Shown here: in pieces, positions 44,747-64,000 of the stretch
Layout: the number at the start of each line of letters is the position of its first letter
Numbering within the stretch: position 1 is the first letter of the stretch
Assembly (NCBI GenBank): GCA_027021705.1
Contig: JALUTT010000085.1
Span: forward strand, 1-64,000
From: Anaerolineae bacterium
Lineage (GTDB): Bacteria > Chloroflexota > Anaerolineae > S140-20
Length of the DNA: 64,000 nucleotides
Reading direction: 5' to 3'
Notes under the pieces: generated by a model
Told to the model about the DNA's origin: nothing
What the model saw: the letters and a program-made list of their open reading frames with translations, nothing else
The model's database searches: none
Position numbers and translations under genes: made by a program

Positions 44747-44810
44747 GCGATCTTCTCCTCCTTCACGCAACTACCGCCTTACTGCCCGCCCCGGGTCGGC
44801 CACGGCCGGC

Positions 44811-45656: not shown

Positions 45657-45674
45657 AGGGCATCCTCCTGCTGT

Positions 45675-46370: not shown

Positions 46371-46387
46371 AGGCGGTGCTCCTTTTC

Positions 46388-47221: not shown

Positions 47222-47459
47222 AGCATCCGTCCGGCCTTGTCCTGGCGTGCGAGGAGAACCCGGCATCGTCTGGCCCGGATGATACCACAGACGGGCCATC
47301 TTCGCAAGGGTGGTCGGATGGTCGGGTGGTCAGGTGGTCACTTGGTCAAGTGGTCGCTTGGTCGGATGAAGTCCTCGGTCCTCAGTCCTCAGTCCTTGGT
47401 CCTCGGTCCTCGGTCCTCAGCCCTCGGTACTCAGTCCGCCATTGGGTCGGGTGGGGAGG

Positions 47460-47933
47460 CTATCCTCCCTCGACCCTGGCGATGGCCTCTGCGGGAGGGA
47501 CGTCGGCGTAGATGACGCTCATAATGCCGGGGAGGTACTTGTCCATCATCAGCACGTTGAGGTAGACAAGCGTCTTGATCATCTGGGGCGTCAGTTGTCC
47601 GCCCTCCACATCCACGCTGGTCTTGTACCGGACCTCGCCGTCGGAGAAGTCCATCTCGAAGTTGCCGATGATGAGGCCGTAGTTCGCCCGGGTCAGGAAC
47701 TCCGCCACGGCCTGGCGCTTGTCCGGCGGAACGTTGGTCTCCAGCACCGAGTAGAAGATGAACTGTTGTTGAGCATCCTTCGCCTGGGCGAAGCACTGCC
47801 AACTCCCGTTGTTGCCCCGGAAGCCCATCCGGAGGATTGGCCTATCCCCCAACTGTTGGAACCTCCAGTCATCATCCCTGAAGAACTGGACCATCGTATC
47901 GAAGATGCTGCCGCCTCCGAAGAATGGACTCAT
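47460..47933 (-). CDS. YbjN domain protein
   Basis: EFLTRANYGLIIGNFEMDFSDGEVRYK. Confidence 0.85.
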   Translation of the reverse strand: MSPFFGGGSIFDTMVQFFRDDDWRFQQLGDRPILRMGFRGNNGSWQCFAQAKDAQQQFIFYSVLETNVPPDKRQAVAEFLTRANYGLIIGNFEMDFSDGEVRYKTSVDVEGGQLTPQMIKTLVYLNVLMMDKYLPGIMSVIYADVPPAEAIARVEGG

Positions 47934-48167
47934 TCCGCCCTCCTTGTAGGTGTAGAACAAGGGCCTTGTGAGGGAGAGAGCTTTGAATCGAGTATATCAC
48001 ACAACCACGCCCAACGCAAGACCCAAAGCCGAATGGCCGTCCACGAACCTCCCACGAATGCACCTTCGCGGACGGCCAACCTCCGGCGGAGGGCGTTTGA
48101 ACCGCCGATGCTCTGTTCGGTGGCCCCATCCCCCCTGGCTTGGTCCGGGCGGGTATGGGAGCCCGCT

Positions 48168-51647: not shown

Positions 51648-51787
51648 CAGGTCTCTCTCCGGGTGTGCAACTTGCAATTTGCCATTCGCAGGGAGAAATA
51701 TACACCCGATGGGGGAAGCAGGCAAGTCGCCGGAAGGGGCAAGGGGCAGGGGGCAGGGGGCAAGGGGCAAGGGGGGGCAGGAGCGGC

Positions 51788-51816
51788 TTGACTTTCCCCG
51801 GGGTTTCCGCTATACT
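51788..51816 (+). promoter_or_regulatory. sigma70-type promoter upstream of cas operon
   Basis: TTGACT-N17-TATACT. Confidence 0.75.
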
Positions 51817-51911
51817 GGGGGTGGTTTTTGAGAGCGCCTTTGAAAAGTCCTCTGTTGGGGTGTCCCCCAGGCCGGTCACGACGCCCTGGTGACCGTAGGA
51901 GCCCACGAAAC

Positions 51912-51947
51912 AGCCCGCTGGCGTCAGCGTTGCCGGCGGGCTTTCTT
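51912..51947 (+). terminator. terminator-like hairpin in the cas10 leader
   Basis: agcccgctggc / gccggcgggct stem followed by ttctt. Confidence 0.6.
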
Positions 51948-51997
51948 CCATAGCCTTAGCGGTTGCCCTGTTCAATGCCGGAGCCAAGGAGTACCCT

Positions 51998-53944
51998 ATG
52001 CACGAGACATGGCGTGACTGGTATGAGGCTGTTCTGCGTCCCCTCCTTGACCACACCCCCGATGCTGAACCTTCTCCCACCTTGAAGAAGCTGCTCGCCC
52101 GCGATCCCGACGAAGTGGACCTGGCCCTCCTGGCCGCCGACACCGACCGTACCCAAAGCTACATCTTCGAGAGCGCCAAACTCCCCGAAATCCGGGGAGG
52201 AAGCGAGCTGCTTCGCCGCCTGAACCAGGAGGTCCTGCCCCAGATCGTGACCGACGCCGGCCTCCCCGCAGCGTGCGTGCTCTATGCCGGCGGTGGGAGC
52301 CTCCTGGCCCTGGTGCCCGCCTCCATCGCCGACGACCTGGCGGCTCAGATCGAGCGATGCTACCCCGACCGGACCGGCACGGCAACCATCACCTGCGTCT
52401 GGCGGCCTGTCAGCCCCCAGGAGGTCCTCCACGGCTGGGGAGGCACGACCTTCTCCCAAGACCAGGTCAACGCCCTGCGCGACCGGCTCACTGCTGAGGA
52501 CTGGCAGCGCGTCGCCCGCGCCTACGGCCTCTCCGACGGTGGCCCCATCCCCCCAGAAGCCTACCGGCAGCGTCGGGGCTTTGGGCAGATGGTCCAAGTG
52601 ATGGGCACGCTGCTGCGGCGGCGCAAGGAGACCCCGCCGGCCATACCCGTTGTTGAAGCCTTCCCCTTCGCCATGCGCTGCCAGGTCTGCCAAGTGCGTC
52701 CGGCGGAGCGGATCGCCCCCTACTTCGGCGAAGACCGGCCCCTCTGCGCCGCCTGTCAGCGTAAAGCAGGCGATGGACGAGCGCAAGAGGCCCGCAGCCA
52801 GCAGGTGAGGCGCTTCCTGGCCTGGCTAAAAGATCGGCCCGACCTCGAGGAACGCTACCTAGGTGACGCGGCCCGGCGCCGGGTCCACTTCACCCAGGAC
52901 TTGAACGAGTTGGGGGCCGCCTGCCGAGCACGGCCGGGGTACATCGGGCTCCTCTACGCCGACGGCAACCGGATGGGCCAGGTTCTGGAGTCCCTCCCCA
53001 CGCCAGAGGCCTACCGCCAGTTCAGCCAGGCCCTGAGGGAAGCCCTGGAGCACGCCGCCTACCAGGCCCTGGCAGAGCACCTCCATCCCATCCAAATCGA
53101 GCGGGTCAGCCCTACCGGAAAACCCCTGGGGAAAGGGTACATCCACCCCCTAGAACCCTTGGTCGCCGGCGGGGATGACCTGATCCTCATCGTGCCGGCC
53201 GATGTGGCGCTGCCCATCGCCCTCCGCTTGAGCCAGCTCTTCGAGCGGGAGATGGTTCAACGGGTGCCGGACGAGATATGGTCCTGGCTCCCCCCTGCCC
53301 TGCGCCACCCCACCCTCTCCGTCGGCGTCGCCATCGCCGACAGCCACAACCCCGTTCGGGTTCTCCAACAACTCTCCCGGGAACTCTGCAAGAGCGCTAA
53401 AGGTCGCGTCCACGAGGAGGAGGAGCAAGGCCACCCTCCCACCTCGGCCCTGGACTTCCTGGTGCTCAAATCCCAGAGCATGCTGCGCCGCGACCTCCGG
53501 CAGCTTCGCCGGCTCCCGCCCTACTACTACTCCGAGGACGGGCGTCGGCGGGGCCGCTTGATGACCGCGGCGCCCTACACCCTGGAGGAGGGCCGCCGGC
53601 TGCTGCGGCTGCTCAAGGCGATACGCCAGGCGAACACCCCCACCAGCCTTCTGCAGAACCTGGTGGCCGCGCTGCATCGGGGACGCAAGTACGGCTCGCT
53701 CCACTACCTGTACCAGCAGGCCCGCTTAGGTGGGACGCAGCCCCTGCTGACCCTCCTGCCCCGAGTCTGGCCCTACGACGACCGGCGGGACCCCATCCCC
53801 TGGCACCGCCTCCCTGGCGAGGAGGAAGTCTTCGCCACCATCGTGCCCGACCTGCTGGAGCTCTACCCCTTCGTGCCCAAACCGGCCCCCGACGATCTGT
53901 GGCGGGAGGTCCTGACGGAGGCAGACGATGAAGACGCGAATTGA
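51998..53944 (+). CDS. cas10: type III CRISPR Cas10, no HD domain, intact GGDD
   Basis: QSYIFES..LPEIRGGS, YAGGG, CQVC..CAAC, YADGNRMG, AGGDD (about 53165-53179). Confidence 0.92.
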   Translation: MHETWRDWYEAVLRPLLDHTPDAEPSPTLKKLLARDPDEVDLALLAADTDRTQSYIFESAKLPEIRGGSELLRRLNQEVLPQIVTDAGLPAACVLYAGGGSLLALVPASIADDLAAQIERCYPDRTGTATITCVWRPVSPQEVLHGWGGTTFSQDQVNALRDRLTAEDWQRVARAYGLSDGGPIPPEAYRQRRGFGQMVQVMGTLLRRRKETPPAIPVVEAFPFAMRCQVCQVRPAERIAPYFGEDRPLCAACQRKAGDGRAQEARSQQVRRFLAWLKDRPDLEERYLGDAARRRVHFTQDLNELGAACRARPGYIGLLYADGNRMGQVLESLPTPEAYRQFSQALREALEHAAYQALAEHLHPIQIERVSPTGKPLGKGYIHPLEPLVAGGDDLILIVPADVALPIALRLSQLFEREMVQRVPDEIWSWLPPALRHPTLSVGVAIADSHNPVRVLQQLSRELCKSAKGRVHEEEEQGHPPTSALDFLVLKSQSMLRRDLRQLRRLPPYYYSEDGRRRGRLMTAAPYTLEEGRRLLRLLKAIRQANTPTSLLQNLVAALHRGRKYGSLHYLYQQARLGGTQPLLTLLPRVWPYDDRRDPIPWHRLPGEEEVFATIVPDLLELYPFVPKPAPDDLWREVLTEADDEDAN

Positions 53945-55814
53945 CGTTCACCTGACCTTCGACGGCCCCTTCAACGTGGGCAGCGGAGCCATAGGCGGCT
54001 CGCTGGCCGACAAACCCCTGATCCGAGATGCCCGGGGGCTGCCTATGGTGCCTGCCTCCGCTTTCAAGGGCCGTCTGCGCCACGAGGTGGAACGGCTGGC
54101 CCCCATCCTCTGCCCCGATGATCCGCCGCCGTGTGGCTCCCCCCGCGCAGAGACGATGTGTCAGGGTGATGCGCCTCCCTGCCCCGTCTGCCGCCTCTTC
54201 GGCTCCCCTTGGCATCCAGGCCGGCTGACCTTCAGCGACTTCACGCTGGTGGAACCGGCCTTTCTGCTCATCGGGGAGCCTCCGCCGGGCCACCTGCGCT
54301 ACGGCGTCGGGCTCTCGCGCCAGCGTCGGGTGGCCGAGGACCAACTGCTCTACACGGTCGAGGTCTTCCTGCCCGGCACCCCCATCACCCTGAGCGGCAC
54401 GATCCAGGGCGATCTGGAGAACGAGGACCTCGTCCTGCTGAAAGCGGCGCTGGAGAACCTCCTCGCCGTCGGCGGGGGCAAGACCAAAGGGCTGGGCTGG
54501 TTTGAGATGGCCTTCCACATCCACCGGGAACCGGAGCCCGCTCCTCCCGCCCCCCTCTCGGTGGGTGACCAAGACGAGGTGCTGGAAGTCATCGTCCAGT
54601 TGGACTCCCCCCTGCTCCTGGGCCCCGATGCCGACGAGGCTTTCTACAAAACGACCCGGTCCTTCATCCCCGGCAGCGTCCTGCGGGGCTCCCTGGCCCG
54701 ACAGATGACTGCCGCCTGCGAACATGACCCGCAGGCCCCCCACGAGGGGTGTGACTTCGGTCGCCTCTTCGACGATGGCCCTGCTCCCATCTTTGAGCAT
54801 CTCTACCCCACCACCTCTCACGCCTGGGAGTTCCCCTTCCCCGCCCCGCTGACCGCCCGTTCCTGCAAGTACCATCCGGGCTTCGTTCACCCCCGTGCCG
54901 AGGAGGAGGGGGGCCACGGCGTCGGGGACATTTTGATCCCCCAGGCGGTCTTCGAGGCCATGCTGGACCGGGGGCTGCCCCTGCCGGCCCTCTACCGGCC
55001 CCGGTGCCCCAGGTGCGGGGCTGAAGTGGTCCCCTTCGACGCCTTCCTCCTGATGATCGAGGCCGACCGCTTCGACAGCATCGCCGTGCCCATCCGCCGC
55101 ACCTCTCACACGGCCATCAACCGGCAGCGGGCCGTTGCAGCCGACGGGCTGCTCTACACCCTGGAGACCATCGAGCCGTTGGACCACCAACGCCGTCCCA
55201 CCACCTTTCGGGGGCGGGTGCGGGCCTCGCCCGCCCAGATCGCCATCCTGGCCCATTGGCTCCCCCGGCTCTCCGCTCTAGGGCGGGGCCAGACCCGGGG
55301 CCTGGGCCACGTCCACGTTCAGGTTAAGCGCCCGGAGGAGACCCCCAACCCGCTGCCCCTCCTGGAAACACGCTTGCGAGATTTCAACACCGCATTCTGC
55401 CAGGAATGGGCCTTCTACGAGCGGGTGGTAGGGGCCGAGCCCCTGCCGGACGATCTCCTCTTCTTCAGCTTGGACCTCCTCTCACCCGCCGCCCTGACCT
55501 GGCACGGCGTGCCGGTCACGGCCCCACCCCCGGCGATGCTGGGCTTTGAGGGGGGCGTCCACCTGCAGCGGGCCTTCGCCCGCTACCAGATGGTGGGCGG
55601 CTGGCACCTGGGTGCCGGCCTGCCCCGGCGAACCCGCCCCGTGGTGGTGCAGGGAAGCGTCTTCCTCTATCGCTGCCAGGGCCTCTCCTTGGAAGCACTG
55701 GCTGCTCACTTGGCCCCCTTGGAGACCCAGGGCCTAGGGGAGGACCGGGGTCGGGGGTTTGGCCGTCTCCTGATCTGCTCTCCCTTCCATTACAAGCCGG
55801 AGGTGACCCTATGA
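53928..55814 (+). CDS. Cas7(Csm3-like)-Cas5 fusion, Csx10-like RAMP
   Basis: N-terminal RAMP VPASAFKG..CPVCRLFG..GGGKTKGLG; second FIPGSVLRG, GRGQTRGLG, GEDRGRGFG. Confidence 0.85.
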   Translation: MKTRIDVHLTFDGPFNVGSGAIGGSLADKPLIRDARGLPMVPASAFKGRLRHEVERLAPILCPDDPPPCGSPRAETMCQGDAPPCPVCRLFGSPWHPGRLTFSDFTLVEPAFLLIGEPPPGHLRYGVGLSRQRRVAEDQLLYTVEVFLPGTPITLSGTIQGDLENEDLVLLKAALENLLAVGGGKTKGLGWFEMAFHIHREPEPAPPAPLSVGDQDEVLEVIVQLDSPLLLGPDADEAFYKTTRSFIPGSVLRGSLARQMTAACEHDPQAPHEGCDFGRLFDDGPAPIFEHLYPTTSHAWEFPFPAPLTARSCKYHPGFVHPRAEEEGGHGVGDILIPQAVFEAMLDRGLPLPALYRPRCPRCGAEVVPFDAFLLMIEADRFDSIAVPIRRTSHTAINRQRAVAADGLLYTLETIEPLDHQRRPTTFRGRVRASPAQIAILAHWLPRLSALGRGQTRGLGHVHVQVKRPEETPNPLPLLETRLRDFNTAFCQEWAFYERVVGAEPLPDDLLFFSLDLLSPAALTWHGVPVTAPPPAMLGFEGGVHLQRAFARYQMVGGWHLGAGLPRRTRPVVVQGSVFLYRCQGLSLEALAAHLAPLETQGLGEDRGRGFGRLLICSPFHYKPEVTL

Positions 55815-56317
55815 GTGGGCAAGGACAAGGAACGAGCAACGGACGCGAGCAGAAACGCCAGCGTCTCCGCCGTCGCATGGCGATCCAACGCCAGGTGGAG
55901 CTGCGGATGAACCACCTCATCCGGCAGATGACCCAACTGGTGGATGCGGAGACGAAGGTGGCCGAGAGCCGGATGGAGAAGCACCAGATCAAGACCCTGC
56001 TGGGGGTGGCCTTGGAGACCTCCAGCGTCGAGGTCATCAAACACTACATCCTCTACCAGGTGGGGCGGGATGTGGCGGGCACGAACTGGCGTCACAACGA
56101 TTTCGGTCGGAAGCTGGTGAAGGCGCTGGACAGGCTGCGCCAGGACGCCGAGCGGATCACCCGGCAGGTCCACCGACAGCTCCGCCTGGAGGACCCCAGC
56201 CGGGAAGAGGTGGAGGAGACCTGGCTGTTGCTGGTGCGGGCCTACCTGGGCTATCTCAACCGCTACTTCTACTTTCGGAAGGAGGAGGCGCTATGGCCAT
56301 CGGCAACGAGTGGATAG
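55811..56317 (+). CDS. putative Cas11 small subunit
   Basis: All-helical 168 aa protein, YILYQVGR, position in type III operon. Confidence 0.65.
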   Translation: MSGQGQGTSNGREQKRQRLRRRMAIQRQVELRMNHLIRQMTQLVDAETKVAESRMEKHQIKTLLGVALETSSVEVIKHYILYQVGRDVAGTNWRHNDFGRKLVKALDRLRQDAERITRQVHRQLRLEDPSREEVEETWLLLVRAYLGYLNRYFYFRKEEALWPSATSG

Positions 56318-57159
56318 ACTTCACCACCTTTCACAACCGCCTGCGGGTGCGGGGGGTTCTGCACGCCGAGACGGCCCTGCGCATCGGTAGCGGGGAGACG
56401 AGCGGCCCCACCGAGCACGACCTGCCCGTCTTAAAGGACCTCTACGGACGTCCCTACATTCCCGGCAGTTCCTTCAAAGGGGCCTACCGCGCCCACTTGG
56501 AGCGGCTGCTGCGGGGGATGGACGAGCGGCTGGCCTGCCCCAGCACCACCCGCCCGCGCGGACGCGACGCCCTGCCCGGCTGCCTCACCCAGGAGGATGT
56601 GGACTACCTGAAGCGTCAGTACGAGGGCGACGCTCCCGGCCTGGCCCGTGAGATCCTGCGCCGCTCCTGCTGGACCTGCTCCCTCCTGGGCGCCCCCTGG
56701 CTGGCCTCCAAGGTCCTGGTCCGAGACCTGACCGTTGTCCCCGAAACTTGGTTCGAGCACTACCTTGTTCGCGACGGGGTTGCCATTGACCGGGACACCG
56801 AGACGGCGGCGGAAGGGCTCAAGTACGACTTCGAGGCCGTTCCCTCCGGCACAGCTTTCGCCTTCGAGATGGTCATCGAGAACGCCAGCGATGCCGAATT
56901 GGGGCTGGCCCTGCTAGGGCTGCGAGAGTTTGAAGAGGGTTACGTCTCCCTGGGAGGAGGAGCCTCACGGGGGCTGGGCAACGTCCGCCTGGTGCTGGAC
57001 TGGGAGCGGTCAGAGTGGCTGACAGCCTCGGACCTACGGGCCTACCTGGAACGGCGGACCGTCGGCAGCCTGGCCCGAGAGGAAGACCGTCAGCGCTACT
57101 GGCGGGCCTTCCTGGACGCGCTGGAGAGGGGAAAGAAGGAGGTAGAGGGCCATGCATAA
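56293..57159 (+). CDS. Cas7 group RAMP (Csm3/Csx7-like)
   Basis: LRIGSG..DLPVLKD..PYIPGSSFKG, RDGVAIDRDT, GGGASRGLG. Confidence 0.9.
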   Translation: MAIGNEWIDFTTFHNRLRVRGVLHAETALRIGSGETSGPTEHDLPVLKDLYGRPYIPGSSFKGAYRAHLERLLRGMDERLACPSTTRPRGRDALPGCLTQEDVDYLKRQYEGDAPGLAREILRRSCWTCSLLGAPWLASKVLVRDLTVVPETWFEHYLVRDGVAIDRDTETAAEGLKYDFEAVPSGTAFAFEMVIENASDAELGLALLGLREFEEGYVSLGGGASRGLGNVRLVLDWERSEWLTASDLRAYLERRTVGSLAREEDRQRYWRAFLDALERGKKEVEGHA

Positions 57160-58093
57160 GAAGTTGGTCAACGAGCTGCGCCTGACCTTCCGCATCCAGC
57201 CCCAGGGCCCTTTGCTCATCAAATCGGGCCGGGAGGCCGGGGCCGATCCCACCCTGCTCGACATGAACTTCGTGCGCACCACCCACGCCGAGCTAGGCCA
57301 TACTGTCTACCTGCCCGGCTCCAGCCTCAAGGGGGCCATACGCAGCTACTGCGAGAAGATCGGGCGGACGGTGGGGCTGAAGGTCTGCAACCCCCTGGAC
57401 GTGCGCGATTCCTGCGGCCGCCGACTGGAGCGCAAGGCCAAGAGGGCCACCGGCGCGGAGATCTACCGGCAGCTTTGCCCCATCTGCTGCATCTTCGGCC
57501 ACACGGTCATGTCCAGCCACATCCGCTTCGACGACGCCTACCCCACACCGGAGACGGTGGCCGTGGTCAACGAGACGGAGGAGCGGGATGGGGTGGCCAT
57601 AGACCGGGTGTCCGGGGCCGTGGCCGTAGGGCCATTTCAGCTCGAGGTGGTCACCCGAGGCGAGTTCCTCGCCGGCCTGACCCTGCGCAACTTCCAGCTC
57701 TGGCAGGTGGGCCTGCTGGCGGTGGCCCTACGGGATATGGCCGAGGGGCGCGTCCCCTTGGGTTTTGGCCGCAGCCGGGGGCTGGGGCGCGTCCGCTTGC
57801 GCTACGACCGGCTGGAGATCACCTATCCCGGCCGCTTCCACGACGATGGCGGGCAGAAGTTCGACCAAGCCCTCTACGGGGTCACAGCCCTGATGTCGGC
57901 TGCCGATGCCGAACCCTACGGCTTCTACCCCGAAGACCCCCTGCCCCTGCCCGTCTCCACGACACCCGTCAGCGAGTGGGGGCGCGTCAGCCTGGTCTAC
58001 GAAGACCCCGGAGCGATCATCCGGCTGCTCAAGGCAACGGTGAAGCCCTGGAGCGCCTACGTGGCGGCGATGACGCAGGGAGGGAACCGGTGA
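57152..58093 (+). CDS. Cas7 group RAMP (Csm3-like)
   Basis: YLPGSSLKG, CPICCIFG, RDGVAIDR, GFGRSRGLG. Confidence 0.9.
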   Translation: MHKKLVNELRLTFRIQPQGPLLIKSGREAGADPTLLDMNFVRTTHAELGHTVYLPGSSLKGAIRSYCEKIGRTVGLKVCNPLDVRDSCGRRLERKAKRATGAEIYRQLCPICCIFGHTVMSSHIRFDDAYPTPETVAVVNETEERDGVAIDRVSGAVAVGPFQLEVVTRGEFLAGLTLRNFQLWQVGLLAVALRDMAEGRVPLGFGRSRGLGRVRLRYDRLEITYPGRFHDDGGQKFDQALYGVTALMSAADAEPYGFYPEDPLPLPVSTTPVSEWGRVSLVYEDPGAIIRLLKATVKPWSAYVAAMTQGGNR

Positions 58094-58680
58094 GCGAGCG
58101 ACCCCACCTCTACCACCGTTTTGTGGCCCCCGAGGAATTGGCGGCGACTCTGGAGGCTCTGAGGGCCACCTACGTCCTGGACTACCTGTACTGGGAGTCC
58201 GAGGCCACCATCGAACTGACGGCCTACCGCACGCCGGATCCGGCGTGGTCCCACGGGCGGGCCTTCGGTCCGTCGCTGGAAGTGCGCTGGCAACGGACCG
58301 GCGAGGGGTTCGAGATGCTGCTGCTGACCGAGAGGCCGCTCCCCCTGCCCCAGGGGTGGCAACCCCTGCCGGAGGCCACTGCTGGGGGGCAAGGAGAGGC
58401 CGATACCCCGTTTCCCTACCCGGACTCGGTGGACTCCCCGGCGCAGGTGCTGCTCTGGGGCACCCACATTCGCCACCTCCAGCACCCCCACCGGCTGGCG
58501 GGTGGCGAGGGGGATGTCTGGATCGAGACGCGCATCCCCCGCCCCCTGCGCTATCCGGTCCGGGGAGCCCCCCCCTGGGTCAAGGCCCGGGTCATCACCT
58601 ACCGCTACCGGGGGCGTCCTGTGCTGACCCGCCTGGTGAGTCTGGAAGGAGAGAAGCATGAGCCCGAGACCTCCTGGTGA
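58090..58680 (+). CDS. Csx19-like protein
   Basis: GTG start overlapping upstream stop; GRAFGPSLEVRW, LLWG, TRLVSL; typical III-D position. Confidence 0.7.
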   Translation: MSERPHLYHRFVAPEELAATLEALRATYVLDYLYWESEATIELTAYRTPDPAWSHGRAFGPSLEVRWQRTGEGFEMLLLTERPLPLPQGWQPLPEATAGGQGEADTPFPYPDSVDSPAQVLLWGTHIRHLQHPHRLAGGEGDVWIETRIPRPLRYPVRGAPPWVKARVITYRYRGRPVLTRLVSLEGEKHEPETSW

Positions 58681-59671
58681 TGAGTTCGTTCCCAAGCCTT
58701 ACAACTTCGTTCCCTTCCCCCAGAAGGTAGAGCGCTTCCGGGTGCCCGGCCACGAACGGCTGGACCTGGCGGACCACTACAGCGGTCGGCTCACCTATCG
58801 CCTGCAGGCGCTGACCCCCGTCTTCGTGGGCACCGGCACCTACGCCCTGGGCGAGGACGTGGGCTTCCCCCGGGCACTGGTCGTCCGTCCCTTCTACCGG
58901 GTGCGCGGCGAGCCTACCATCCCCGGTTCCTCGTTGAAGGGCGTGGTCCGCAGCATCGTCGAGGCCGTCAGCCCTTCCTGTGTCACCGTCACCCGCATCG
59001 CCCCCCACAAGCTGCCCCCAGGGGTGGAACTGGCCCAGGGCCGGCGCCGGGGTTGCAGCCCCACCCAGGCCTGTCCGGCCTGCAACCTCTTCGGTCGGGT
59101 GAGCCAGTCGGCGAAGGTCCATTTCAGCGACGCCCACCTGGCCGAGGGGGGGAAGACGGCCCTCTTCCGGCTGACGCCTCTCTTCGCGCCCCGCGCCTTC
59201 CGCTCCCCACCCGTCTACCTGAACGATGAGGGAAAGTTCAAAGGGCGCAAGTTCTACTACCACAGCCGGCCGGCCGAGGACAGCCGCCAGCCTCCCGTCG
59301 AGGTGATCCCCAAAGGGCGGCAGGTGACAGGGGAGGTGACCTTCGAGAACCTGCGGATGGCCGAACTGGGCCTCCTCCTCTTCGCCTTGGGGCTAGATGG
59401 CACCCTTACCCTCAAGCTGGGTGGCGGCAAACCCGTGGGGCTGGGCTCCCTGCGAACGGTGGGGGCGACGTTGGCCCTGCTGGAGGCCGACCACTACACC
59501 CAGGCCGAGGCCCAGGAGAGGACTTATCGTGGGAAAGCGCTGGCCGACTTCGTAGGGCAGGCCATTGATGCCGCCCTGAGCGAAGGTATCCTCCTGCGAG
59601 AGCAAGCCCTGGAGCTGGCAGAGATCCTGACCTTCACCCAAGATCGTTCCGCCCCTCTGAGGTCCTACTGA
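58658..59671 (+). CDS. terminal Cas7 group RAMP
   Basis: PYNFV, IPGSSLKGVVRS, CPACNLFG, GRKFYYH, KLGGGKPVGLG. Confidence 0.88.
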   Translation: MSPRPPGDEFVPKPYNFVPFPQKVERFRVPGHERLDLADHYSGRLTYRLQALTPVFVGTGTYALGEDVGFPRALVVRPFYRVRGEPTIPGSSLKGVVRSIVEAVSPSCVTVTRIAPHKLPPGVELAQGRRRGCSPTQACPACNLFGRVSQSAKVHFSDAHLAEGGKTALFRLTPLFAPRAFRSPPVYLNDEGKFKGRKFYYHSRPAEDSRQPPVEVIPKGRQVTGEVTFENLRMAELGLLLFALGLDGTLTLKLGGGKPVGLGSLRTVGATLALLEADHYTQAEAQERTYRGKALADFVGQAIDAALSEGILLREQALELAEILTFTQDRSAPLRSY

Positions 59672-59766: not shown

Positions 59767-60111
59767 ATGGCGATGAGCAAAGCGGATTGGGCCAAAGCCG
59801 ACGCCATTGCCCGCCGGTTGGCCAAGGACGTAGACCGCAACGAGCTGGGCAAGATCGTGGCCTATGCCCACCGTGTCCGCGATCCAGGGAAGGTGATCAC
59901 GCTGGCGCAGCGCCTGCCCCAGAGCGGCTATGTGCGCAGCAAGCGCACCCGAGGCTACCTCCAACGAATCGCCCGGGTCCTGAGCGACGAACTGGCCGGC
60001 CTGGAAAGAGAGCGGGCGCTCGCCATCCTGGCCTGGGCTTTCCGATTGCTCACCACCTACCAGACGGAGATGGGCACGGGCAAGGCAGCCGGGCGGAGGC
60101 AAAGAGGCTAG
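59767..60111 (+). CDS. small basic helical cas-associated protein (possible second Cas11-like)
   Basis: GAGGAGG RBS; 114 aa helical; ILAWAFRL near C-terminus. Confidence 0.55.
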   Translation: MAMSKADWAKADAIARRLAKDVDRNELGKIVAYAHRVRDPGKVITLAQRLPQSGYVRSKRTRGYLQRIARVLSDELAGLERERALAILAWAFRLLTTYQTEMGTGKAAGRRQRG

Positions 60112-60161: not shown

Positions 60162-61427
60162 ATGGAATTTCTTGAGAGAGAGATTCGCGATCTTCAGGAA
60201 GAGCTGGACAGCATCGAAAAGCGCAGACACATCTTTCAGGGGCATGTGCGCCATCTCGAGGAGCGAGCAGCCATACAAGGTGGTGAACACAATCTCTCAC
60301 TCGCTGATAGAACTCAATTGGAACGTGTTCGTGAAGTGTTTGAAAAGCTTGACCTACAAATGCAGGACCTCCAACGCCAGTTAGTAGACAGGCTTGATAG
60401 ATTGCAGAGAGCTCAGGAGGTGGAAGCACTTGAGAAAGCGCTAGACGAGGCCATCGAGCAAGAGAATCCTAGTCTTGTAAAAAGTATCGCCGGGCAGTTG
60501 AAAAGCCTGGAACCGTCCCGTGCAGAGACGGTTGATCTGAAGCTCACGCGCTACTATTGGAGAGCAGTTATAGCTATGGAGCGCACCAGGAATTTTGATG
60601 GCTGTAGGCAAGCATGGGAACAGTTGGAAGCCCACTGCTATCGAACTGGTGACGAAGAGGGCCTTGGCAATGCCCGTGAAGGACTGGCACGCTTATTTGA
60701 GCAGCAAGGTGACAAGGAGGCTCGAGAGGGAGGATTTACCCAGGCCATCCATCTCTACCGCCAGGCCTACAAAAAGTGGTGCGAGGTAGGAACAGGAGAA
60801 GACGCACTATTCGCCCAGCAGCGTGTCTTAGGGAAACAGGCCCAAGCGTACGAGAATCTGGAACAGCTTGAAAAAGCATTGCACTGTAGTTATGATCGGC
60901 TAGAACTGCTGACGCAGATGGGACGATTACAAGAAGCCAAGCCTTGCTACCGCCAAGCCATAAAGTTATGCGCCAGGCTCTCCGGCCCACAGCGTGATGA
61001 TTGGGAGTATAGACTCACCAGCCTCTATGTCGAGTGGCTTAAAGACCTTGAGAGCCCCTCGGAGATTCAGGAAATCGCCGACCTCGGTCGTCGTGAGAAC
61101 AGACCAGCAATTTACGAACCTGCCACTTATGCCCTAAAGGATCTCAGTATCTTGATCCCACAGCCGTTACACCTCCGAGAGAGACATCGCTCCCCACCAG
61201 GAGAACCATCGCGCGATCTGACCATCCGACAGCGCTGTGCTGACTTGGACAAACTGATTGCCGAAGCCCAAAAGCTTCTCAGGGAGTTCGAGGAGCTCCG
61301 CCTCCTGGCCGATGATCCCAAGAAAAAGCTTCGGCTGGAACGCCAGATCGCCGACCTGAAGGCCCAGATGAAGGATTACGAAGCGGAGTATCAGGAGCTA
61401 CAGTGCCACGAGCTAGAGGGGAGGTAA
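60162..61427 (+). CDS. coiled-coil/TPR-like protein with terminal helical modules (Y'-TPR-X)
   Basis: TPR-like segments (AIHLYRQAY, AKPCYRQAI); C-terminus shared with next gene; lower GC; start could be 60144. Confidence 0.75.
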   Translation: MEFLEREIRDLQEELDSIEKRRHIFQGHVRHLEERAAIQGGEHNLSLADRTQLERVREVFEKLDLQMQDLQRQLVDRLDRLQRAQEVEALEKALDEAIEQENPSLVKSIAGQLKSLEPSRAETVDLKLTRYYWRAVIAMERTRNFDGCRQAWEQLEAHCYRTGDEEGLGNAREGLARLFEQQGDKEAREGGFTQAIHLYRQAYKKWCEVGTGEDALFAQQRVLGKQAQAYENLEQLEKALHCSYDRLELLTQMGRLQEAKPCYRQAIKLCARLSGPQRDDWEYRLTSLYVEWLKDLESPSEIQEIADLGRRENRPAIYEPATYALKDLSILIPQPLHLRERHRSPPGEPSRDLTIRQRCADLDKLIAEAQKLLREFEELRLLADDPKKKLRLERQIADLKAQMKDYEAEYQELQCHELEGR

Positions 61428-62090
61428 GGCTTGATGACCGATCATTTGGATGAAGAAGTGGAACACCTGCGCGAACTCCTGCGCACCCATCGGCGCACCT
61501 TGATGATCCTGGAAGAGCAGATCGCCCAGTTCACCGAGATGGAAGCCCCCGTCCACAAGCTCAGCCAGCGGGATCAGGTACGCGCCGAGATCCAGCGCCT
61601 GGAGGCCCAGCTGCAAGCTTTGTCGTCGCAAGGGGGCCGTCAGGCATCGCAGGCATCGAAGGAAAAGCCACCTCGCAAGACTGATTCCACCGGTCGCAAC
61701 CAGCGCCAACAGCGTTGTGACTCCTTAGGCGAGTTGATCCGCGACGCTCAGGCCCTGCTCAAAGAGTACGAGGAGCTTCGCCTCCTGGCCGATAATCCCA
61801 AGGAAAAGCGTCGGCTGGAACGCCAGATCGCCGACCTGAAGGCCCAGATGAAGGATTACGAAGCGGAGTATCAAGAGCTACAGTGCCACGAGCTAGAGGG
61901 GAGGTAAGGCTTGATGACCGATCATTTAGATTTAGAGAAAGAAGTGGAACACCTGCGCGAACGCCTGCGCATCCATCGGCGCACCCTGATGATCCTGGAA
62001 AAGCAGATCGCTCAGTTCACCGAGATGGAAGCCCCCGTCCATAAGCTCAACCAGCGGGATCAGGTACGCGCCGAGATCCAGCGTCTGGAG
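61229..62090 (+). repeat. about 376-bp direct repeat with 480-bp period (61229-61604 / 61709-62090) spanning gene ends and starts
   Basis: Near-identical core 61289-61604 vs 61769-62090 with a 6-bp indel. Confidence 0.93.
61434..61907 (+). CDS. two-module (Y-X) small helical protein, putative adaptor
   Basis: N-terminus nearly identical to that of the 61914 gene; C-terminus similar to that of the 60162 gene; GAGG RBS. Confidence 0.75.
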   Translation: MTDHLDEEVEHLRELLRTHRRTLMILEEQIAQFTEMEAPVHKLSQRDQVRAEIQRLEAQLQALSSQGGRQASQASKEKPPRKTDSTGRNQRQQRCDSLGELIRDAQALLKEYEELRLLADNPKEKRRLERQIADLKAQMKDYEAEYQELQCHELEGR

Positions 62091-63194
62091 AAGGAGCTTC
62101 GTGCTCTGGAGGCCCAGCAGGTCGTGGGTGTCAGCCCGCCGCCAGAACCAGAACCTTCACACCCCTCCATCCGCGTCTTCATCAGCGGCACCATCCGAGA
62201 CCTCCGGGCCGAGCGAGAGGCCGTGGAACAGGCCCTCCGGCACCTCGATCTGGAAACCCTGCGGGCCGAGACCATCGGCTCCCAGTCGGCCAGCCCCTAC
62301 GAGGTCAGCCTGATGCTGGCCCAGCAGTGCGACATCTACCTGGGCCTCTACGGCGGACGCTACGGTACCATCGTGCCCGGCGATGGCCGCTCCATCACCG
62401 AGATCGAGTATCAGACCGCCCGCAACCAGGGCAAACCGATCCTCATCTACCGCAAGAAGGGGGTAGAGGTAGAGCCGGAACAGGAAGAGTTCCTACAGTT
62501 CGTCGGCGACCTGACCGGCGGTCACATCTGGCGGGAGTTCGGCCCCGATGACGTGCCCGACAACCTGATGGCCTGGGTGCAAGAGGACGTGCGGGCGGAG
62601 GTTCGGCGTCACCCCGAGTGGGCTCGGCGTCCCCCGGCCCGGGGCCGCGTCCTCCTGGCCTCCCTGGGCCGCTCGCCCGGGGCCGTCACCGGCCTCTACC
62701 ATGCCCTGGTCCGCGACGGCAAGCCGGTCACCCGCGTCGTCACCTTCTCCTCCACCCATCGGGATGTGCGCGACGCGGCCGGCATCTGTAGGCAAGAGTT
62801 CCACTGGCTGGGGGTCCCCTACGCCAACCGTCTCATTGACGCCGAAGACATCGCCAGCGAGGACGATGCCCGCGAGTTCAAGTCCTGCTTCTACGGTCTG
62901 CTCCAGGAGAGCCTGGGGAGCGGCGCTGAGGTCCTGGTGGGCATCACCGGCGGGCGGACGGTGATGGGAGCGCTGATGGCCGTCGTCGTACAGACCACCG
63001 CCCCTGGACAGGCCGCCCTCTACCACCTGGACGTGGACGACGACATCGAGGAAGACGGTCGCCTGCCCCGGCTGTGGGATTTCGAGGGCACGGAGCGGTG
63101 GCGGGAACTCCTGGACCCACCTCCGGAGAAGTGTCGGCTGGTCCGAGTGCCTTACGTCCGCTTCCCAAGCCAATCCTCCGCCGGCGGCCGATAG
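61914..63194 (+). CDS. Y module-DUF4062-CARF (Csx14/NE0113-like) fusion
   Basis: RVFISGTIRDL..ER, CDIYLGLYGGRYG, SITEIEY; LLASLGRSPGAVT, EDI.S..D, ITGGRTVM, LYHL. Confidence 0.78.
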   Translation: MTDHLDLEKEVEHLRERLRIHRRTLMILEKQIAQFTEMEAPVHKLNQRDQVRAEIQRLEKELRALEAQQVVGVSPPPEPEPSHPSIRVFISGTIRDLRAEREAVEQALRHLDLETLRAETIGSQSASPYEVSLMLAQQCDIYLGLYGGRYGTIVPGDGRSITEIEYQTARNQGKPILIYRKKGVEVEPEQEEFLQFVGDLTGGHIWREFGPDDVPDNLMAWVQEDVRAEVRRHPEWARRPPARGRVLLASLGRSPGAVTGLYHALVRDGKPVTRVVTFSSTHRDVRDAAGICRQEFHWLGVPYANRLIDAEDIASEDDAREFKSCFYGLLQESLGSGAEVLVGITGGRTVMGALMAVVVQTTAPGQAALYHLDVDDDIEEDGRLPRLWDFEGTERWRELLDPPPEKCRLVRVPYVRFPSQSSAGGR

Positions 63195-63216: not shown

Positions 63217-64000
63217 ATGCCCACGGTCGTCACGGTCCACCTCTCCACGGCAGATCCGCTCTTCTTCGACGAGACCTGGCCCCTGGAGACGCCCTTCCGG
63301 CAGCTCCTGGCCGCTGCTCACCCATCCCCACCGCCGACCGGGGGGCAACACGACGCCTTCCTGCCCTACACCCTCTCCCCCCTCTGGCGGGTCCACCGCC
63401 GGCAGCGCCCCAACCCGGGGAGGGCAACCCCGACCGCCTACCGATGGCGGATCTGCCTCCTCGACGACGCCCTCGCCCCTCCCCTCCTGGCCGGCCTCCA
63501 GGCGATGGAGACGCTGGCGCTGCAGGGTGCTTCCCTCACCGTCGAGGAGGTGACCGTCGAGGCGCAGAGCTACCCCCAACTCGCCCGCCAGGCCCAGGAG
63601 CAGGTCGGTGGCCGGCCCGAGAGCGCCCGCCGCCTCTCCCTGGAGTTCATCACCCCCGTCGTCCTGCACCGGTCCGGGCTCCCCATGCCCCTGCCGGACC
63701 CCCTCCTCGTCTTCCGCCACTACCTCCTCTGCTGGGACACCTTCGCCCCGCCGGAGCTCCGGGTCAACGTCAACCTCCTCGACGCCGTCGCCTTCCACGT
63801 CGCCCTGACGGAGCACCGGCTGGAGACCCGGCGCGTCCGGCTGGCGGGGAAGCCCCCCCGAGTCGGCTTCCTGGGGAACGCCACCTACACCGTGATGGCC
63901 TGGGAGAAGCTCGGCCCGGACTTCCTGGCGACGCTGCACGCCCTGGCCCGGTTCGGGGCCTTCTGCGGCACCGGTGAGATGACGGCCCAGGGTCTGGGGC
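63217..64000 (+). CDS. cas6: Cas6 endoribonuclease (3' end beyond window)
   Basis: Manual translation: PYTLSPL, LEFITP, PLPDP, GFLG, C-terminal G-loop CGTGEMTAQGLG. Confidence 0.85.
   Translation, partial: MPTVVTVHLSTADPLFFDETWPLETPFRQLLAAAHPSPPPTGGQHDAFLPYTLSPLWRVHRRQRPNPGRATPTAYRWRICLLDDALAPPLLAGLQAMETLALQGASLTVEEVTVEAQSYPQLARQAQEQVGGRPESARRLSLEFITPVVLHRSGLPMPLPDPLLVFRHYLLCWDTFAPPELRVNVNLLDAVAFHVALTEHRLETRRVRLAGKPPRVGFLGNATYTVMAWEKLGPDFLATLHALARFGAFCGTGEMTAQGLG

Follow-up and report, generated by a model that had tools for sequence, protein, structure and literature searches.

A DUF4062–CARF fusion protein as a probable cyclic oligoadenylate-activated NADase of a type III-D CRISPR system in Anaerolineae

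Introduction

What does a type III-D CRISPR system do when it recognises foreign RNA, if its Cas10 has no HD nuclease domain and the last ancillary gene of its operon codes for a protein with no HEPN nuclease? We address this for a locus in a 64,000-nucleotide stretch of an Anaerolineae genome (referred to below as the window), where a first-pass annotation made from the letters had proposed a fusion of a DUF4062 domain to a CARF domain, acting either as an effector activated by cyclic oligoadenylate (cOA) or as a self-limiting ring nuclease. In type III systems, Cat1, TIR-SAVED and TSR1 are known to deplete NAD+ in response to cOA; TIR effectors of this sort are said to be rare there. It was not until 2026 that the DUF4062 domain, also called NIR and found in human TEP1 as well, was identified as an NADase, according to the preprints cited below.

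The reading that best explains the locus as a whole, and one we hold to be rather likely on the strength of homology, is that the fusion protein (P0001) is an NADase activated by cOA, probably cA4, and is the signal-responsive effector of the type III-D system. It would probably stop the metabolism of the cell upon detection of a virus, and a further level of control may come from an adjacent repeat protein.

Results

The locus is of type III-D, with Cas10, a Csx10-type Cas5, several Cas7 proteins, Csm2 and Csx19 all matched, and with all the genes described here on the forward strand. Cas10 (51998..53944, 648 aa; PADLOC E 2.1e-70) has a GGDD motif (VAGGDDL), and its only Pfam matches at E≤0.01 are palm2 (E 1.4e-22) and Csm1_B, the first palm domain starting about 45 residues from the N-terminus; the earlier statement that this Cas10 has no HD domain is thus confirmed. 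An HD domain is reported for only 3% of III-D Cas10s (PMC11229360), and since the HD-less form is the norm for this subtype, the suggestion that signalling may be the main output of the system is a reasonable one. Cas10 is followed by a fusion of Cas7 to Csx10 (Cas5, III-D; 53928..55814; PADLOC Cas5_IIId/Csx10 E 2.4e-68 and Csm3 E 5.5e-34; Pfam RAMPs and Cas_Cmr3), the Csm2/Cas11 small subunit (55811..56317; PADLOC Csm2 (III-D) E 4.6e-28), two Csm3/Cas7 genes (56293-57159 and 57152-58093; PADLOC Csm3 E 2e-53 and 2.1e-36; Pfam RAMPs), a Csx19-like III-D subunit (58150..58680, the C-terminal part of an ORF at 57475-58680; PADLOC Csx19 E 2e-09 over aa 233-393), a third Cas7-family RAMP (58658..59671; PADLOC Csm3/Cas7_IIId E 4.5e-45; Pfam RAMPs) and Csx21, an ancillary protein without an assigned function (59767..60111; PADLOC Csx21 E 1.1e-14). 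After these come the three genes that concern us most, and then Cas6 (63217..64000 in the window, the gene ending at contig position 64044; Pfam CRISPR_Cas6 E 4.4e-13), which is followed by a second Cas6 gene (positions 218-1045 and 1042-2031 of L006 are both Cas6).

A long forward-strand ORF upstream of Cas10 (47442-51791) was dropped, as it has no Pfam or PADLOC match and its codon-position GC is the shadow of a minus-strand gene. A direct-repeat search of 44000-52200 and of the 8 kb after position 63000 found no CRISPR array, nor did TRF over the whole window and 19 kb downstream, a weak negative for a program poorly suited to the purpose. When related loci are considered, the order Cas7, Csx21, effector is seen in all 10 of the non-redundant loci whose upstream flank measures 1.4 kb or more, Csx21 is again found directly upstream of the partner/effector pair (tblastn), and Cas10 is present in the 4 of 4 loci that extend to its position. 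Pfam and PADLOC searches identify no HEPN or SAVED effector elsewhere in the locus, and a search of the genome gave no Csx1-HEPN; a SAVED search of the genome was silent, and is uninformative as control genomes were equally silent. The genome holds two further Cas10 loci, which counts against assigning the effector to any one complex.

The effector gene is the last ancillary gene of the operon. Its ORF is listed as 61911..63194 with a TTG start, and the next codon is the ATG at 61914, which gives the gene of 426 aa (61914..63194) that the first-pass annotation had put forward. The AlphaFold2 (AF2) model (mean pLDDT 87.7) has three parts, namely a helical hairpin (aa 1-72), a DUF4062 domain (aa 87-232) and a CARF domain (aa 245-414), and a domain search of the whole genome reproduces the coordinates of the latter two. 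The short motifs quoted earlier are all present: SITEIEY at aa 160-166, LGRSPG at aa 251-256 and TGGRT at aa 345-349. Family profile searches gave zero matches to HEPN or any other nuclease family and the protein ends 12 residues past the CARF fold, so that it is correct to say that no HEPN nuclease is present, and we reject a reading as a HEPN or other nuclease effector. Both DUF4062 and CARF are carried by 43 of the 44 database homologues. In the sampled set the family is confined to metagenome bins of Anaerolineae/Chloroflexota, which implies no cultured model. The first-pass annotation had mentioned neither the 72-residue hairpin at the N-terminus nor the two genes upstream in which it recurs. 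A short-form homologue of about 336 aa lacks the hairpin.

The predicted DUF4062/NIR TIR-like NADase domain (62172..62609; Pfam PF13271) is matched by Pfam over aa 87-169 (nt 62172-62420) at E 2.1e-20 and 73.1 bits, where the cut-off is 24.7, a match that spans the full 82-position profile. In the AF2 model it forms a five-stranded parallel alpha/beta TIR-like fold (strands at 87-91, 114-116, 141-146, 176-181 and 204-209). Structure comparison with aa 83-231 places nucleotide N-hydrolases (DNPH1, Z 14.4) level with TIR domains (the plant RPS4/RRS1 TIR, Z 13.2; RPPT-TIR, Z 12.5) at the head of the matches listed, followed by the CMP N-glycosidase BcmB (Z 12.1), in agreement with the earlier call of a TIR/nucleoside-deoxyribosyltransferase-like fold. 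The fold by itself does not fix the substrate.

A profile of the effector family searched against the PDB finds the DUF4062 domain of KpSwz (E 5.2e-14) and TEP1 (E 6.2e-5), and pairs Glu163 (codon 62400-62402), the Glu of an S-x-T-E motif and our candidate catalytic residue, with E82 of the KpSwz chain at high posterior probability; this is the E97 of the publication, because the constructs start at residue 15/16 (a 15-residue offset). NAD cleavage has been reported for other DUF4062 proteins in three bioRxiv preprints of 2026 (including 10.64898/2026.05.01.722283 and 10.64898/2026.09.04.749371). These place a catalytic Glu at the start of helix C (KpSwz E97, PsAvs2 E108, TEP1 E1008); KpSwz is reported to depend on E97 for NADase activity and for defence, and PsAvs2, Vulcan, Vesta and hTEP1 to need the equivalent Glu. 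The Glu of SITEIEY, which the first-pass annotation had singled out, thus aligns with one that is experimentally required. Conservation among 31 family members is high, with S160 in 31/31, E163 in 29/31 and E165 (codon 62406-62408) invariant in 31/31; E163 is replaced by His in P0021 and by Gln in P0045, which goes against the NADase reading. On homology, the effector probably cleaves NAD.

Alternatively, the DUF4062 domain might make a second messenger from NAD+ or another nucleotide, as Thoeris and plant TIRs do, or be an N-glycosidase like DNPH1 or BcmB, both of which stand beside TIR domains at the top of the structural matches listed. TIR enzymes are indeed reported to make signalling products (10.64898/2026.05.01.722283). 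However, nothing that Pfam and PADLOC identify in the locus is a candidate receptor for such a signal, and we consider this alternative unlikely.

The C-terminal part of the effector (62646..63155, aa 245-414) is a Crn1/Csx14-like CARF domain with a C-terminal helical lid. Pfam matches it to Cas_NE0113 CARF (PF09623) over aa 255-417 (nt 62676-63164) at E 6.8e-12 and 46.1 bits, where the cut-off is 23, the PADLOC CARF5/Csx1 profiles match the effector at E 1e-18 to 1e-17, and the family profile finds Sso2081 in the PDB at E 3e-12. The AF2 model is that of a CARF fold, as expected of the Csx14/NE0113-type CARF that had been proposed: it aligns to Crn1/Sso2081 (7yhl_B) with a Z of 18.2 (rmsd 2.6 Å over 157 residues at 25% identity), taking in chain residues 2-178 with the lid included, and to Sis0455 with an equal Z of 18.2. 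The first-pass annotation had named a failure to model as CARF among the outcomes that would speak against it, and this did not occur. Other structural matches listed are the CARF domains of Cad1 (Z 16.6) and EiCsm6 (Z 15.1). The Cad1 and Csm6 CARFs that it resembles (Z 15-16.6) bind cA6, an observation that goes against cA4 as the ligand.

The ligand and catalytic residues reported for Sso2081 are Thr10/Ser11, Asp75, Gly104, Arg105 and Lys106 (PMC10018336). Ser11, Asp75, Gly104 and Arg105 map to S254 (62673-62675), D312, G347 and R348, which are kept in 23, 28, 31 and 29 of the 31 family members, respectively; Thr10 maps to R253 and Lys106 to T349. In the other 8/31 the Ser11 equivalent is Ala. 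At the position of Lys106, described as important in Sis0455 and contributing in Sso2081 (PMC10018336), all 31/31 have Thr, Ser or Ala and never Lys. The predicted pocket motifs GxSPG and GGR are otherwise conserved (G252, P255, G256, G346 and G347 in 31/31). The effector misses the curated NCBIfam cut-offs for Csx14 (TIGR03642, 37.8 against 90.35 bits) and for Crn1 (NF040581, 18.3 against 125 bits), as do its nearest stand-alone relatives. Because the Lys is never kept and these scores are far under the cut-offs, binding or cleavage may differ from those of Crn1. Self-limiting ring-nuclease activity is nevertheless possible for this protein, and the alternative offered by the first-pass annotation is plausible in that the CARF is Crn1-like.

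A stronger version of that idea is that the effector is mainly a ring nuclease of the Crn1/Csx14 type, or a cOA sink, that ends signalling, with DUF4062 having a regulatory or structural part. Among the matches listed, Sso2081 and Sis0455, both dedicated cA4 ring nucleases, are the closest solved relatives of the CARF in sequence as well as in structure, the lid is matched, the Ser11 equivalent is present in the protein of the window, and Csx14 is counted as a member of the Crn1 family (PMC12409355). Against this, the catalytic motif of DUF4062 is strongly conserved, the equivalents of Ser11 and Lys106 are lost to the extent given above, and a protein serving purely to end signalling would call for a further cOA-activated effector, which neither the locus nor, as regards Csx1-HEPN, the genome provides. 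We find this quite unlikely.

The gene two upstream of the effector codes for a helical-repeat partner (60162..61427, 421 aa from its ATG; the ORF is listed from 60126), in which an N-terminal hairpin resembling that of the effector (motif A) is followed by weak TPR-like repeats and a C-terminal segment (motif B). Its Pfam TPR matches all fall under the cut-off, the best being TPR_12 (E 1e-4, 22.9 bits). Between the two lies a gene for a putative adaptor chimera of 157 aa (61434..61907), made up of a copy of the N-terminus of the effector (motif A) and a copy of the C-terminus of the partner (motif B); behind it is an in-frame tandem duplication of 61226-61622 and 61706-62108, which are 86-89% identical. 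Motif A of the effector itself (61914..62129, aa 1-72), a putative homotypic adaptor, is modelled as two helices (2-32 and 42-72; block pLDDT 85-97 over residues 1-70). Copies of motif A are thus found in three adjacent genes, the motif A-like N-terminus of the partner aligning in the motif A alignment (A2) and being matched by the A2 profile. A similar picture emerges in L001, where motif A is at the C-terminus of the partner and the N-terminus of the effector.

Of 1.84 billion representatives searched with the motif A profile, 163 proteins match at E≤1e-3, though part of the list may be compositional, because motif A resembles a coiled coil; suspect matches include a FYVE/coiled-coil protein and a GH113 protein. 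When considering the 52 longer matches, 35 have Pfam domains, including EAD7 (4), CHAT (3), SIR2_2 (2), SAVED (2), TIR_2 (1), PNP_UDP_1 (1) and STAND NTPases (about 10). No EAD or bDLD family of Pfam matches the effector or motif A at E≤1. Since it is found in both upstream genes and is fused elsewhere to CHAT, SIR2, TIR, SAVED and STAND, the hairpin seems to be an effector-associated adaptor, and going by these matches motif A is EAD-like and outside any named family. Motif B is common to the partner, P0048 and P0004, the last being an effector homologue with motif B in place of motif A; among longer proteins a search returned only the partner of the window and P0004, and we reject motif B as a widespread adaptor.

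Repeat proteins of this kind recur across the family. A TPR/HEAT protein scoring above the Pfam cut-offs is encoded upstream in the operon in 8 of 12 non-redundant loci, where its gene immediately precedes that of the effector in all but L004; two more loci (including that of the window) have weak TPR-like matches and two have none. Counting weak matches, a repeat protein or fusion is present in 10/12. In P0031 and L029 the TPR is fused to the effector. Several partners have additional domains, for instance TIR_2 in L002, an intact paralogous DUF4062 in L019 and L025, and bDLD1 in L001; bDLD1 is also found in P0045. BLASTP finds no significant similarity between the partners of the window and of L001 (best E 0.049), so the partners are better seen as analogous repeat proteins than as demonstrable orthologues. 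A complex prediction for the full effector (family alignment A1) with the 421-aa partner, run without controls, scored 0.00 and counts for neither side.

These observations bear on a third alternative, namely that the TPR/HEAT partner senses a phage protein, as in Avs, Vulcan and Swarozyc-type systems, and that this is the main route of activation, the CARF being modulatory or vestigial. Repeat or auxiliary domains of other DUF4062 systems are reported to bind phage proteins (2026 preprints), 10 of the 12 loci have the partner, either beside the effector or joined to it, in two loci the partner has an intact DUF4062 of its own, and it evolves fast, that of the window having only 3 homologues and a GC3 of 0.555 against about 0.82 in neighbouring genes. 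However, the CARF pocket is kept (G346, G347, P255 and G256 throughout the family and R348 nearly so), the effector gene is always inside the III-D operon between Csx21 and Cas6, and L027 has an effector without a repeat partner. This alternative, too, we regard as improbable.

Discussion

Returning to the reading of a cOA-activated NADase, the following sequence of events can be proposed. Binding of target RNA by the III-D complex would switch on the cyclase of Cas10, which has the GGDD motif and no HD nuclease. The resulting cyclic oligoadenylate, most likely cA4 by homology, would bind the dimeric Crn1-like CARF (aa 245-414), and the ligand would rearrange or oligomerise the TIR-like DUF4062 domains to give a competent active site around Glu163. 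NAD+ would then be split into ADP-ribose and nicotinamide, an activity known from other DUF4062 proteins, and the infected cell would be arrested. The Crn1-type CARF may slowly cut its own activator, switching the enzyme off. Gene order, fusions and domain co-occurrence suggest that motif A would serve as a homotypic adaptor, holding the effector on a fast-evolving scaffold of TPR-like repeats, which in sister loci bears a TIR, DUF4062 or Death-like domain of its own.

A bolder extension, which we think doubtful but put forward for its reach, is that the locus is a hybrid of CRISPR signalling and an assembly in the style of NLR and Death-fold systems. As homotypic adaptors, motifs A and B would bring the cOA-bound effector into a complex of several proteins on the fast-evolving TPR/HEAT scaffold, the DUF4062 or TIR domains of partners in sister loci would do likewise, and the destruction of NAD+ would integrate two independent danger signals, combining the detection of foreign RNA (through the crRNA) with that of a phage protein (through the TPR/HEAT sensor). 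The 157-aa protein with both motifs would be a recent bridging adaptor.

If the NADase reading is true, the effector family is an independent invention of the NAD+-depletion output, built from DUF4062/NIR and a CARF of the ring-nuclease type, and gives the newly described NIR NADase domain a direct link to CRISPR signalling. The effector is also a natural test of whether a lidded CARF of the Crn1 type can both activate and time-limit an enzyme. The TPR/HEAT partner and the adaptors offer a tractable case in which to ask whether CRISPR second messengers are wired into the apoptosis-like adaptor assemblies of multicellular bacteria.

Comparison with known systems

The nearest parallel is Cat1, found first in a Chloroflexota bacterium and reported to deplete NAD+ when activated by cA4 (Baca et al. 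2025, PMC12162218). Like the effector, it joins an N-terminal NAD-cleaving domain of the TIR-fold class to a C-terminal CARF in type III loci (PMC12162218), whereas Cat1 has 258 aa and a canonical TIR domain (PMC12162218, Data S1). By sequence comparison the effector is analogous to Cat1 rather than homologous: no Cat1 chain is among the 8 PDB matches of the family profile (E≤1) or of the single sequence (E≤10), and none of 3 signature peptides of the effector family occurs in the table of Cat1 homologues (Data S1). We reject membership of the Cat1 family on these searches by profile, single sequence and signature peptide. The 50 structural matches listed do not include Cat1, which speaks for neither side. 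In Cat1 the cA4 is described as sandwiched between stacked CARF dimers to give filaments, with cleavage of cA4 undetected, whereas the CARF of the effector is of the lidded Crn1 type; the account of Cat1 drawn on here describes neither an N-terminal adaptor nor a TPR partner (PMC12162218), and the effector has candidates for both.

The DUF4062/NIR systems described in the 2026 preprints (Swarozyc KpSwz, PsAvs2, Vulcan, Vesta and Evangelion) have the same PF13271 domain and the S-x-T-E Glu, and in Avs2 and Vulcan the domain is likewise associated with TPR/HEAT repeats. Unlike the CARF of the effector, their sensors are reported to bind proteins, being auxiliary, STAND or repeat domains that respond to phage proteins; the word CARF occurs 0 times in the main texts of the three preprints, and these texts draw no link between DUF4062 and type III CRISPR.

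Crn1 (Sso2081, Sis0455) and Csx14 have in common with the effector the CARF fold and lid, the GxSPG and GGR motifs and the equivalents of Ser11, Asp75, Gly104 and Arg105. Crn1 is a stand-alone protein of about 180 aa with GGRK, whereas the CARF of the effector has GGRT and is fused to an enzyme domain; such fusions would be missed by the ring-nuclease survey of PMC12409355 because of its 250-aa length cap. TIR-SAVED and TSR1 (TIR-SAVED-Crn4) are similar in being cOA-activated TIR NADases of type III systems, and TSR1 is reported to limit itself through a fused ring nuclease, there a separate Crn4 domain. Both are described as sensing through SAVED rather than CARF, responding to cA3 and having a canonical TIR domain; TSR1 is an example of a dimeric switch, and TIR-SAVED, like Cat1, of activation through filaments.

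The adaptor side finds its parallel in the EADs and bacterial Death-like domains of NTPase-centred conflict systems (Kaur et al. 2020, 2021), which like motif A are small, helical, non-enzymatic modules with copies on a scaffold and an adjacent effector. [quoted passage not shown] The core of EAD and bDLD systems is a vWA-MoxR, GTPase or STAND module, whereas that of motif A is a type III CRISPR locus.

Domain architecture and predicted structure of the effector

The effector, P0001, lies in an ORF at 61911..63194 (+) with a TTG start, and the next codon, the ATG at 61914, gives the 426-residue protein (61914 to 63194, plus strand) described in the first-pass annotation. As proposed there, DUF4062 precedes a CARF domain, both above their Pfam cut-offs: DUF4062 at residues 87–169 (E 2.1e-20; 73.1 bits against 24.7) and Cas_NE0113, the CARF domain, at residues 255–417 (E 6.8e-12; 46.1 bits against 23). 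The CARF and Csx1 profiles of PADLOC concur on the second domain (best E 1.3e-18), and in NCBIfam Csx14 (E 2e-09) scores best, then Crn1 (E 0.0015), each far under its curated cut-off. The three motifs quoted in that annotation, SITEIEY (residues 160–166), LGRSPG (251–256) and TGGRT (345–349), are all found, and the HEPN domain it had reported missing is indeed absent, as is any other nuclease domain in Pfam, NCBIfam and PADLOC profile searches.

A word-indexed search gave 44 relatives at E≤0.001, of which 43 have both Pfam domains; the remaining one is a 240-residue fragment. Those few with a name are from Anaerolineae/Chloroflexi bins. We aligned P0001 with 30 of the 44, leaving out, by no formal criterion, P0003, P0009, P0010, P0013, P0014, P0016, P0018, P0020, P0022, P0023, P0028, P0034, P0037 and P0040; these include P0003, which is 93% identical to P0001, the fragment (P0028), and several that are short or from short contigs. 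The AlphaFold2 model built from this 31-sequence alignment (mean pLDDT 87.7, pTM 0.68) has a helical hairpin (helices at residues 2–32 and 42–72), a five-stranded alpha/beta domain (87–232) and the CARF domain with three short C-terminal helices (245–414).

DUF4062 as a candidate NADase

When the model was compared by VIA-align to the top 1000 Foldseek chains, residues 83–231 resembled DNPH1 (Z 14.4), the RPS4/RRS1 TIR (Z 13.2), RPPT-TIR (Z 12.5) and the CMP N-glycosidase BcmB (Z 12.1). Three 2026 bioRxiv preprints report DUF4062 to be a TIR-like NADase; the equivalent Glu is described as required in PsAvs2, Vulcan, Vesta and human TEP1, and the Evangelion proteins as having the same core. The family profile matches the solved KpSwz chain (E 5.2e-14) and TEP1 (E 6.2e-5), and pairs E163 of P0001 with the Glu of KpSwz “SFTE”, chain residue 82, which is E97 in the paper's numbering because the constructs begin at residue 15/16. 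The claim of a retained Glu was thus right: it is E163, the first Glu of SITEIEY, aligned to the catalytic E97 of KpSwz and kept in 29 of the 31 aligned members (His in P0021, Gln in P0045). T162 is likewise retained in 29, and S160 and E165 are invariant. These similarities make NADase activity very probable for the DUF4062 domain.

The CARF domain, its ligand and self-limitation

The C-terminal domain models as CARF, as anticipated, and is Crn1-like: residues 245–414 match the Crn1/Sso2081 ring nuclease (7yhl_B) with Z 18.2 (rmsd 2.6 Å over 157 residues, 25% identity), a match that spans chain residues 2–178 and therefore takes in the Sso2081 lid. The same region matches Sis0455 (Z 18.2), the Cad1 CARF (Z 16.6) and the EiCsm6 CARF (Z 15.1), and the family profile matches Sso2081 at E 3e-12 and Sis0455 at E 1.3e-10. 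A ring-nuclease survey places Csx14 within the Crn1 family; it annotated ring nucleases only up to 250 residues, a limit that would leave out the DUF4062-CARF fusion (PMC12409355).

In Sso2081 the scissile phosphate is reported to be held by Thr10, Ser11, Gly104 and Tyr133 and the adenines to be read by Asp75, Arg105 and Arg172, with cleavage impaired by Ser11Ala and by mutations of Asp75, Arg105 and Lys106 (PMC10018336). The HMM alignment equates Ser11 with S254 (Ser in 23 and Ala in 8 of the 31 aligned members), Asp75 with D312 (Asp in 28), Gly104 with G347 (invariant), Arg105 with R348 (Arg in 29), Thr10 with R253 and Lys106 with T349, a position that is Thr in 27 members, Ser in 3, Ala in 1 and Lys in none. 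The ligand would most likely be cA4. Slow self-cleavage of the activator by this CARF domain is possible, at somewhat below an even chance.

The closest stand-alone CARF relatives in metagenomes form two groups, one of about 230 residues with GGRK and one of about 320 residues with GGRS; for every one of them Csx14 is the top-scoring family and Crn1 the next, both under the cut-offs. The longer form is found in III-D-like loci (L032 5995–6957, L036 5995–6957 and L039 5995–6951), where it carries SPIGRSPG and GGRSS, has a sub-cut-off Csx14 as top NCBIfam match, and ends in about 140 helical residues that contain no known domain.

The type III-D locus and its host

Pfam and PADLOC identify the neighbourhood as a type III-D operon on the plus strand. 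It begins with Cas10 (51998–53944, 648 residues), followed by a Cas7-Csx10 fusion, Csm2, two Csm3 genes, Csx19, a third Cas7, Csx21 (59767–60111), a 421-residue helical protein with weak TPR-like matches (60162–61427), which is the effector's partner, a 157-residue helical protein (61434–61907), P0001 and, directly after it, Cas6 (from 63217). Cas10 keeps GGDD. It had been described as lacking an HD domain, which agrees with our results: Pfam finds none at E≤0.01, and the first palm domain starts about 45 residues in. This is normal for III-D, since a survey of 1113 loci reports HD in only 3% of III-D Cas10s, and concludes that III-D acts mainly via cOA signalling (PMC11229360).

Downstream of the effector Cas6 is present as two successive genes, at 218–1045 and 1042–2031 of L006, which continues the contig (contig positions 63217–64044 and 64041–65030, the second beyond the window); related loci have a single Cas6. 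Repeat tools detected no CRISPR array beside the operon (window 44000–52200; L006 1–8000). Upstream of Cas10 two ORFs of more than 1200 residues overlap. The plus-strand ORF (47442–51791) has no Pfam or PADLOC match and was rejected as a shadow of the minus-strand ORF (48168–51770), which we take to be a real gene because of its GC3 of 0.93 and a lipoprotein-type signal peptide. A 318-nt tandem repeat at 17281–17864 (1.8 copies, 93% identity) is probably inside a coding region.

In the host assembly (94.9% complete), contigs C59 and C83 each carry a further Cas10 locus, the one on C59 adjoining a CARF-HTH regulator. Besides P0001 the assembly has two NE0113-type CARF genes, one of them a CARF-HTH regulator, and P0001's is the only DUF4062 gene.

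Conservation of gene order

Scanning genomes gave four loci, all in Anaerolineae/Anaerolineales bins. Metagenomes gave 33: the contig of the window itself, 15 weak matches (30–38% identity, all but one limited to the CARF part) and 17 DUF4062-CARF relatives with an identity of at least 46%, five of these being short or partial matches. Seven duplicate pairs (98.8–100% by blastn) were collapsed and four contigs of insufficient length (L021, L030, L031 and L033) dropped, which left 12 non-redundant loci, window included. A tblastn search with the window proteins places Cas7 and Csx21 ahead of the effector in all 10 loci whose upstream flank is 1.4 kb or longer. Cas10 and the entire gene order are found in all four that extend far enough, and Cas6 is downstream in nine. 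From this constant order, we infer that DUF4062-CARF is an ancillary gene characteristic of one III-D sublineage.

A variable helical-repeat partner

A helical-repeat protein usually lies directly upstream of the effector (one gene further in L004), and in 8 of the 12 loci it passes Pfam cut-offs: TPR alone in L003, L028 and L022 (a partial ORF), TPR with bDLD1 and a C-terminal copy of the effector's N-terminal hairpin (motif A) in L001, TIR_2 with TPR in L002, HEAT in L004 (940 residues), and DUF4062 with TPR in L019 (4477–6096) and L025 (4314–6005). Two more loci show weak matches or a fusion: the window, where all TPR matches are sub-threshold, and L029, where a TPR-like region is fused N-terminally to DUF4062-CARF and a TIR_2/AAA protein lies upstream. 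The last two have none, L017 having a 360-residue coiled-coil protein in its place and L027 no partner. P0031 is a further TPR-DUF4062-CARF fusion, and P0045 has bDLD1 inserted between DUF4062 and CARF. In L019 and L025 the partner's own DUF4062 is paralogous to that of the effector (39–44% identity to the window domain) and has SxTExE intact, and each of these operons is therefore predicted to specify a pair of DUF4062 enzymes that differ in their sensor domains.

As judged by sequence, partners of different loci are not detectably homologous; that of the window and that of L001, for instance, show no significant similarity (best E 0.049). For the window partner just three relatives turned up in the database, and its GC3 is 0.555, compared to about 0.82 in its neighbours (0.82–0.83 for Cas10 and the effector; the window is 66.5% GC). 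The pattern suggests a fast-evolving or recently swapped sensor/scaffold, by rapid turnover or recent acquisition.

Putative adaptor modules

The first 66 residues of P0001 (motif A) also begin the 157-residue protein (85% identity) and, in diverged form (24% identity), the window partner; in L001 motif A is at the partner's end and at the effector's start. The C-terminal 65 residues of the 157-residue protein (motif B) copy the partner's C-terminus, with the last 30 identical, and in P0004 motif B replaces motif A ahead of DUF4062-CARF. DNA comparison reveals an in-frame tandem duplication, 61226–61622 against 61706–62108 (period about 483 nt, 86–89% identity), that covers the partner 3′ end, the intergenic spacer and the effector 5′ end, both copies having identical stop, RBS and start contexts. 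The gene at 61434–61907 is the product of this duplication, a chimera of the effector N-terminal and partner C-terminal motifs.

A motif-A profile from five copies, searched against 1.84 billion representatives, matched 163 proteins at E≤1e-3, of which 11 reach E≤1e-10; the motif is N-terminal in some and C-terminal in others. We ran Pfam on 52 of the 150 matches listed, roughly those of at least 240 residues; 17 have no Pfam domain, and the other 35 include EAD7 (4), EAD9 (1), CHAT (3), SIR2_2 (2), SAVED (2), TIR_2 (1), PNP_UDP_1 (1), about ten STAND/AAA NTPases, and TPR or HEAT, together with evident noise (FYVE/coiled-coil, GH113, Lcl_C). In P0094 and P0132 motif A is joined to SAVED, one with the motif N-terminal and SAVED C-terminal, the other in the order FGE-sulfatase, motif, SAVED; therefore other cyclic-nucleotide sensors appear to use it too. 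No named EAD family in Pfam matched motif A, and in the host genome it is found only in the adjacent partner, chimera and effector genes, plus one weak match. Its distribution fits the “EAD principle” reported for bacterial conflict systems, with one copy on a core component, another on a neighbouring effector, and fusion to varied effectors elsewhere (PMC7159879). Near type III loci, CARF/SAVED proteins are reported to neighbour EAD7 and vWA-MoxR-VMAP components (PMC10910872), so multi-component CARF signalling has precedent as a general idea.

Comparison with known systems

In the literature text searched we found no description of a DUF4062-CARF fusion. The main texts of the three DUF4062 preprints never use the word “CARF”, though their figures or supplements may show such a fusion. 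The nearest functional analogue is Cat1, an N-terminal TIR with a C-terminal CARF from a Chloroflexota bacterium, described as forming cA4-glued filaments that deplete NAD+ without cleaving cA4 (PMC12162218). We rejected P0001 as a Cat1 homologue, since the Cat1 chain is absent among the 8 PDB sequence matches of the family profile or the single P0001 sequence, and three signature peptides of the DUF4062-CARF family are absent from the Cat1 authors' homologue table (PMC12162218). TIR-SAVED and TSR1 are further analogues. Reading the protein as a cOA-activated effector, as the first-pass annotation did, is well supported by homology, and a cOA-activated NADase would be a known kind of system. 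What would be new in P0001 is the different NADase family and the ring-nuclease-type CARF, and the conserved repeat-protein partner and putative adaptor modules are undescribed for type III effectors in the literature text searched.
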